Below are positions 56,501 to 59,500 of a DNA stretch of 64,000 nt, piece by piece. The position numbers are program-made. Numbering within the stretch: the first letter of the stretch is position 1; each line of letters starts with the position of its first letter. The DNA is from Escherichia coli (lineage in GTDB: Bacteria > Pseudomonadota > Gammaproteobacteria > Enterobacterales > Enterobacteriaceae), in NCBI RefSeq assembly GCF_017348835.2, contig NZ_CP071375.1. One strand, written 5' to 3'.

Positions 56501-59500
56501 GCCGTTATAGTTAATCGCTACTGGCAGGAAATGGTACTGAATATTCGGCCACGCAAATTCCTCTCGGCTGCGAATAAATCCGCCTGCTTCAAAGTGGTTG
56601 CTGGCACCAACGCCGGTGCCGCCAAACAGCCACTCCGCACCGATTTTCGGCTGATTCCACCACTGCAGGGCAGGGTAGAGGGAAACCGGTTCTTTGCACT
56701 CATATTGCAGATACATCTCCAGGTGATCCTGAAGATTTTCGCCGACGCCGGGTAAATCATGCACCAGCGGAATATCAAACTCCGCCAGCAGTTCAGTGCT
56801 ACCCACGCCGGAACGTTGCAGGATCTGCGGAGAGGCGATCGCACCTGCACATAACAGCACCTCTTTATTCGCTGTCGCGCGGGTTGGAATGGTGCTATCG
56901 CCTTCCAGCCACTCGACGCCTACCGCGCGTTTGCCGTCAAAAATGATGTGATCGGTCATAGCGTGAGTACGAATGGTCAGGTTCGGGCGCGATTTGGCCT
57001 GATCGAGATAGCCGCGCGCGGTGCTGGCGCGACGGCCCTGCGGCGTCACGGTGCGATCCATCGGGCCAAAACCTTCTTGCTGATAGCCGTTGAGATCGTC
57101 CGTGCGCGGGTAGCCCGCCTGCACGCCCGCTTCAATCATCGCTTCAAACAGCGGATTGACGCCGGGTTTGGAGGTGGTGACGCTCACCGGGCCATCACCG
57201 CCGTGATAGTCGTTATCACCAATATCGCGCGTCTCGGCCTTGCGATAGTAGGGCAGGCAATCGAGATAGCTCCAGTTCTCCAGGCCGGGTTCTTTCGCCC
57301 AGTTGTCGAGATCCAGCGCATTGCCACGGATGTAGCACATGCCGTTGATCAGCGACGATCCACCCAGACCTTTACCGCGTCCGCACTCCATGCGGCGGTT
57401 ATTCATAAACGGTTCAGGTTCCGTTTCATAGGCCCAGTTGTAGCGTTTACCCTGTAGCGGGAATGCCAGGGCAGCGGGCATCTGGGTGCGGAAGTCAAAG
57501 CGATAGTCCGGGCCACCCGCTTCAAGCAGCAGCACGGTTGTGTTCGGATCTTCAGTCAGACGGGTAGCGAGAACGTTGCCGGCTGAGCCGGCACCAATAA
57601 TGATGTAGTCAAATTGCAAATAAACCTCCTGGTTAGAATATGGACTGGAATTTAGCCATCTCAACCTGGATGGACTTCACCTGGGTGTAACTCTGGAGCG
57701 TCATCACGCCGTTCTCGCGACCAATGCCGGAGTGTTTGTAGCCGCCAACGGGCATCTCTGCCGGGGATTCGCCCCAGGTGTTGATCCAGCAAATACCCGC
57801 TTCCAGCTGATGAATGACGCGATGCGCGCGGTTCAGGTCCGCCGTCACGATTCCCGCCGCCAGGCCGTAGTCGGTATCGTTAGCGCGGCGAATGACTTCG
57901 TCTTCCGACTCGTAGGTCAGAATGGACATCACTGGCCCGAAGATCTCTTCACGCACGATGGTCATATCGTCGCTGCAATCGGTGAACACAGTCGGCGCGA
58001 CCCATGCGCCGTTATCGAGGCCATCGCCTTTCAGTACATCGCCGCCGCACAGTACGCGCGCGCCTTCCTCTTTGCCTTTGGCGATATAGCGCAGCACGTT
58101 ATCGCGATGCGGGAAGCTGACCAGCGGGCCGAAGTTAGTTTGCGGATCGAAAACGTCGCCCGCGCGAATGCGCTCAACGCGCGCCAGAATTTTCTGCTCA
58201 AATGCGGCTTTGCATTTCGCCGGAACGAAGACGCGGGTGCCATTGGTACACACCTGACCGGAGCTGAAGAAGTTTGCCATCATGGCGATATCGGCGGCGA
58301 GATCGAGATCCGCATCATCGAAAACGATCAGCGGTGATTTACCGCCCAGTTCCATGGTCACTTCTTTCAGGGAAGAGGCCGCCGAGTTAGCCATCACTTT
58401 TTTGCCGCTGGCGACACCGCCGGTAAATGAAACTTTGGCAATGCCCGGATGCTCGGTCAGATATTGCCCGGTCTCCGCGCCCACGCCCGGCAACACGTTA
58501 AATACGCCGTCCGGCAGGCCCGCTTCGCTGTAAATTTCAGCCAGCTTTAACGCGGTAAGCGGGGTGACTTCGCTCGGTTTGAAAATCATTGCGTTGCCTG
58601 CCGCCAGCGCCGGGGCGGATTTCCACAGGGCAATCTGGATCGGGTAGTTCCATGCGCCAATCCCCGCCACCACGCCCAGCGGTTCGCGGCGGGTATAAAC
58701 AAATGACGTCTCACGCAACGGGATCTGGCTGCCTTCCAGCGCCGGGATCAGCCCGGCGTAGTACTCGAGCACGTCCGCACCGGTAACGATATCGACGGTT
58801 GAGGTTTCCGAATATGCTTTTCCGGTGTCGAGGGTTTCCAGTTTTGCGAGTTCGTCATTGCGTTCACGCAGAATATCAACGGCCCGACGCAGAATACGCG
58901 AGCGTTCCATAGCGGTCATCGCCGCCCAGATTTTTTGCCCCTGTTGGGCACTCTTCACGGCGCGATCGACATCCTCACGCCCGGCGGCCTGCACGGTCGC
59001 CAGCACGTTACCGTTGGCCGGGTTAATGGTCTCGAAGGTGCGACCGCTGGTGGCGGAGGTATAACCACCATGTATATAAAGCTGCTGTTCTGCCATTCGG
59101 GACATCACGTCTCCTCGGTTAATCGGTGGGTAAATGCTGAGTAATAAAGTGACGGGTCAGCGAGTGTGCGAGAGGTTTATCCAGCGGTTTGCCGCTCAAT
59201 GCCGCGCGCAGCCATAATCCGTCAATCAGCGCGGCAAGGCCGTAGCCCGCTTCCTGTGCCAGGTGGCGCGGCAATTCGCGGCGAAACTCGCTCACCAGAT
59301 TCGACAGCAAGCGGCGGCTGCTGACCTGCTGTAAACGATAGAGCATCGGCTGATGCATACTGCTGGCCCAGAACGCCAGCCAGGCTTTCATCGCCGCACT
59401 GCTCACCTGCGTTTCATCGAAGTTTCCGCCAACAATCGCCTGTAATCGCTGCTCTGCACTGCCCTGCGGAAGTGCATGTAATCGATTCAAAACCGCGTCA

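Follow-up and report, generated by a model that had tools for sequence, protein, structure and literature searches.

In the 64,000-nt stretch of the Escherichia coli genome analyzed here (contig NZ_CP071375.1 of assembly GCF_017348835.2; hereafter the window), betA is very probably translated from a UUG codon at the betB-betA junction of the betIBA operon, positioned by the sequence AGGAGG 5 nt upstream, within the 13-nt gap between the two genes. This start is already known, being the standard reference annotation, and is real but ordinary: UUG belongs to the three canonical start codons of E. coli and is used by ∼3% of the genes (bioRxiv 10.1101/063800).

Sequence and coding content of the betB-betA junction

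Both genes are located on the minus strand of the window. The coding sequence of betB (betaine-aldehyde dehydrogenase; 57633-59105) starts with ATG and specifies 490 amino acids, whereas that of betA (choline dehydrogenase; 55931-57619) specifies 562 amino acids plus the stop codon, as deduced from its translation and from the match to TIGR01810. Read on the minus strand, the junction is GAG ATG GCT AAA TTC CAG TCC ATA TTC TAA cc AGGAGG tttat TTG. It comprises the betB stop codon TAA (57633-57635), 13 nt before the betA start; the Shine-Dalgarno (SD) sequence AGGAGG (57625-57630), which lies inside the gap; a spacer of 5 nt; and the betA initiation codon TTG (57617-57619, read as fMet), assigned from the sequence, from RefSeq CDS starts, and from conservation in E. 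coli. The gene continues with CAA TTT GAC TAC ATC ATT ATT GGT GCC GGC TCA GCC GGC AAC (QFDY…). The original prediction, made from this sequence alone, was that TTG occupies the position at which the conserved N-terminus of BetA begins and is preceded by AGGAGG at proper spacing, and both statements were borne out (57619-57617 and 57630-57625, respectively). The interval it gave, 57608-57625, is correct as well and extends from the last SD base through the Asp codon, on the minus strand, which had not been specified.

The sequence AGGAGGU is complementary to the 3′ end of 16S rRNA. A perfect AGGAGG at the right spacing from a candidate start has a chance expectation of roughly 1 in 1000, and the betA SD is therefore no chance match. 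Upstream of the TTG, the betA frame is closed by a TGA codon (57677-57679, minus strand) at a distance of 20 codons, with a TGA-TGA pair further up. Between this TGA and the TTG, there is no in-frame ATG or GTG, and the sole alternative in-frame NTG is another TTG (57662-57664, minus strand), 15 codons upstream and within betB. In the open frame, the TTG at 57617-57619 is the only start codon preceded by an SD.

The betI-betB junction (59105-59121, minus strand) has the same layout, that is, TAA followed by a 13-nt gap containing GAGGAG, and then ATG; here, a GTG is present in frame directly before the betB ATG.

The identity of both gene products was assigned with family profiles. BetA scored 1023.5 bits against the TIGR01810 equivalog of NCBIfam (cutoff 732.1), with positions 1-532 of the profile corresponding to residues 4-537 of the protein, and 995.8 bits against PRK02106 (cutoff 605), with the alignment beginning at residue 1. 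Both family profiles hence set in within the first four residues of the protein initiated at the TTG, and neither reaches upstream. BetB scored 918.6 bits against the PRK13252 equivalog (cutoff 593). The gene order betT, betI, betB, betA is present in the ORFs of the window and in matching RefSeq records, and over the 451-bp betB-betA junction, the window is 98.9% identical to the K-12 locus at the DNA level. Based on equivalog-level homology and on the identity of the junction to that of K-12, BetA is predicted to be the choline dehydrogenase that converts choline to betaine aldehyde. Its FAD-binding Rossmann motif (GxGxxG, here GAGSAG) occupies residues 8-13, right after the start. Because this motif begins at residue 8 and the first profile position falls on residue 4, no start further downstream gives a complete enzyme; downstream ATG codons were rejected as starts since the N-terminal FAD-binding region would be lost.

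Conservation of the start codon within E. coli

In K-12 MG1655, the RefSeq CDS of betA (b0311; WP_001159094.1) starts at the same TTG (locus position 2732), and the junction (TAA, cc, AGGAGG, tttat, TTG, CAA TTT GAC) is identical to that of the window. The same codon is annotated as the start in strains PE164, ST131 2822, 06-00048, O157:H7 YB14-1, and 99_0849, so that the comparison of the start region across strains, proposed together with the prediction, came out in its favor. In a 141-nt alignment of these six sequences, the TTG is invariant together with the 60 nt on its 5′ side and the 30 nt on its 3′ side.

The survey was extended to complete E. coli genomes using the 451-nt junction as the query, which yielded 5183 records, representing 5179 of 5426 genomes. 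Variants of the start codon were sought with 31-nt megablast queries, chosen such that a 28-nt seed word, wherever placed, includes the start codon. The TTG version of this 31-mer was found in 5182 records from 5178 genomes, as compared with the 5179 genomes containing the junction, whereas neither the ATG nor the GTG version had any match in complete E. coli genomes. The TTG start of betA is fixed in E. coli.

The junction is absent from 247 of the 5426 complete genomes, and 10 copies of it reside on plasmids. The window allele of betA does not differ from that of K-12 in the start region. The 3′ end (55931-55955, minus strand) contains an A-run whose length polymorphism sets the C-terminus of BetA. 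The K-12 protein has 556 amino acids (ending in RAKK) as opposed to 562 in the window, which has one extra terminal A. The 562-residue form is encoded by the window, PE164, O157:H7, and 06-00048 (A7 in the window and in PE164), and the 556-residue form by K-12, ST131, and 99_0849 (A6 in K-12, with RAKK directly followed by the stop codon); each of the two alleles is frequent in E. coli. Similarity to K-12 ends ∼150 nt past the betA stop codon (below about 55790 of the window), where K-12 carries ykgH and both the window and PE164 carry different DNA.

The start codon in other genera

For comparison beyond the species, a degenerate DNA pattern for the conserved N-terminus of BetA was matched against one genome per species, which identified at least 120 loci, and the reading frame of each listed locus was followed upstream until a stop codon was reached. 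Among the matches listed, at least 13 loci read TTG-CAA/CAG/CAT-TTT-GAC without any in-frame ATG upstream. They belong to Enterobacter (six), Lelliottia, Pseudocitrobacter, Citrobacter, Klebsiella (two), and Raoultella, plus one MAG, and in all 13, the TTG is preceded by a TAA (TGA in the MAG) and then by CC(A/G)GGAGG. Trabulsiella has ATG-CAA-TTT-GAC, that is, an ATG at exactly the homologous codon, together with a similar SD. The other 106 listed loci have an ATG upstream of the motif, at a distance of two to six codons except in one case (L048).

Where ATG is used, its position varies. In Pluralibacter, Pantoea, Kosakonia, Cedecea, Tatumella, and Xenorhabdus, the ATG of betA is at the same position as the TTG, but the second residue differs (Glu in Pantoea and Pluralibacter, as compared with Gln in E. 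coli), whereas in Erwinia, Pseudomonas, and Halomonas, it is located one to four codons further upstream (two to four in the latter two). In Trabulsiella, Pluralibacter, Pantoea, Pseudomonas, and Halomonas, betA encodes the orthologous enzyme with the same N-terminal FAD-binding motif, and in several of them, it follows betB after a short gap, as in E. coli. Judged from these sequences, the TTG start of betA is a clade-level trait. It is probably derived from an ancestral ATG, a direction of change that we infer.

Alternative readings of the start region

In the original prediction, the closest ATG on the upstream side would lengthen BetA by 21 residues and produce an overlap with betB. No such in-frame codon exists, and initiation from it can be dismissed outright. 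ATG triplets are present at 57659-57657 and 57704-57702, but they lend the idea no support because they lie 40 and 85 nt upstream, both out of the betA frame, and are Met codons of the betB frame (VEMAKF and GVMTLQ, respectively), while the betA frame itself runs into the TGA codons mentioned above. Initiation at the upstream in-frame TTG (57664-57662), which would extend BetA by 15 residues and make betA share the final 32 nt of betB, is very improbable. This codon is the first NTG after the in-frame stop, which is why a mechanical ORF list begins there. However, it lacks an SD at a suitable distance (there is just an AGG immediately adjacent to it), is used in no annotated record that was checked (K-12 and the five other strains), and heads a region that the family HMMs stop short of; in relatives using ATG, the protein begins at, or a few codons from, the QFDY/EFDY motif. 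Nor has the 15-residue extension been conserved as a coding region. In Klebsiella and Raoultella (L079, L087, and L113), the spacer between the betB stop codon and the TTG is 14 nt instead of 13 nt (57620-57632 in the window), owing to a 1-nt insertion that increases the distance between SD and TTG to 6 nt but leaves AGGAGG and TTG intact. As an indel of 1 nt is a frameshift for any protein initiated upstream, the extension is out of frame in these organisms, which also have no upstream in-frame start, and is thereby independently excluded.

Derivation of the TTG from an ATG by mutation in this strain or by a sequencing error, with betA being weakly expressed or decaying, has practically no likelihood. 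It is true that, among the matches listed, ATG predominates in betA homologues from beyond the core Enterobacteriaceae clade. Yet, the occurrence of the identical TTG context in all but one of the 5179 E. coli genomes, with ATG or GTG in none, speaks against both mutation in a strain and error; moreover, TTG is common to at least six other genera, and the reading frame of betA is intact, with a score far above the equivalog cutoff. Initiation of betA at the TTG of 57617-57619, as originally predicted, is instead upheld by the RefSeq/PGAP start, by the codon being the sole SD-preceded start, by the ATG of Trabulsiella at the homologous position, and by where the NCBIfam models begin.

Probable constraint on the initiation region

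To put the persistence of the TTG into perspective, 4-fold sites of 12 full-length sequences from the TTG clade served as the benchmark. Divergence from the window at these sites is 30-53%, and only 24 of the 209 sites (11.5%) are the same in all 12 sequences. With such a fraction of 4-fold sites being invariant as well, invariance of the first T of the TTG is only weakly informative about selection; it is suggestive but not significant alone.

A different picture emerged for the surroundings of the start when, in 11 sequences, nucleotide-identical codons were counted among positions with a conserved amino acid. Within the last 15 codons of betB, 6 of 10 such positions are invariant, as compared with 27 of 199 in the betB gene body (Fisher p = 0.0013), and within codons 2-15 of betA, it is 6 of 13 versus 24 of 209 in the betA gene body (Fisher p = 0.0032). 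For both junction regions combined (about 57575-57680 of the window), the ratio is 12/23 versus 51/408 (Fisher p = 1.3e-5). This suggests that the region around the betA start is subject to an extra constraint at the nucleotide level, which does not imply that the TTG itself is the selected feature.

It is a tentative possibility that the TTG is actively kept by selection in order to hold BetA synthesis below that of BetB, for example, to avoid a build-up of betaine aldehyde or an overload of a membrane-associated flavoprotein. The codon has been retained across genera despite their 4-fold divergence from the window, and synonymous conservation is raised around the betA start. Furthermore, AUG-to-UUG is reported to be, in general, the start-codon switch most strongly selected against (PMC5622118), which makes fixation and retention of a UUG notable. 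On the other hand, only one site is concerned, and the same invariance is seen at 11.5% of neutral sites; Trabulsiella, with ATG and a similar SD, indicates that ATG is viable; and the raised synonymous conservation could reflect a general constraint on the initiation region or on coupling rather than on the TTG itself. The more specific proposal, that a single fixation of UUG at the root of the Escherichia-Citrobacter-Klebsiella-Enterobacter clade was followed by its active maintenance, together with the unusually conserved initiation region reaching into the betB 3′ end, for a sub-stoichiometric BetA:BetB ratio that would keep the toxic intermediate betaine aldehyde from accumulating, is unlikely.

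Discussion

Initiation of betA at UUG would proceed in the conventional manner, with fMet-tRNA decoding UUG as the initiator codon. Given the gap of only 13 nt, ribosomes terminating on betB would probably reinitiate at betA or be passed on to it locally (translational coupling). In reporter assays, output from the three canonical start codons spans 10-100% of that of AUG (bioRxiv 10.1101/063800), and the rate of initiation at the betA UUG would probably be somewhat below that at an AUG, partly offset by the strong SD. BetA would then probably be made at, or below, the level of BetB. Lower output of BetA relative to BetB, which starts with ATG, is thus plausible, although the strong AGGAGG and the close coupling to betB may compensate in part for the UUG. 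Sub-optimal start codons are reported to be accompanied by stronger SDs as a tendency (PMC5622118), which the strong SD of betA fits.

A structural version of the coupling, in which translation of betB would open a hairpin sequestering the SD, was also considered. In the predicted fold of the junction RNA (-27 kcal/mol), the 3′ end of betB pairs with the beginning of the SD, but with z = -1.5, this is not significant compared with shuffled sequences. The hairpin showed no covariation, the flanks being too conserved to show any, and the Citrobacter sequence would break two of its pairs. As the fold is neither significant nor accompanied by covariation, the structural version is unsupported and was dropped.

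Confirmation of the standard start of betA has little importance beyond correct annotation. Still, gene callers or readers seeking an ATG would mis-annotate the gene, and for heterologous expression of E. coli betA (e.g., in stress-tolerant crops), the TTG needs to be replaced. In the literature searched, no explicit statement of the TTG start of betA was found, and the gene is absent from the supplements of TetRP start-site profiling. If it were true that the TTG tunes the stoichiometry of the enzymes leading from choline to glycine betaine, betA would be a small example of dosage control by start codon within an operon.

Compared with canonical UUG-initiated genes of E. coli, there is nothing unusual about betA: it is alike in having UUG behind a strong SD at a distance of ∼5 nt and in the expected use of fMet. 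For the UUG of betA, nothing points to an autoregulatory role of the kind played by the AUU start of infC.
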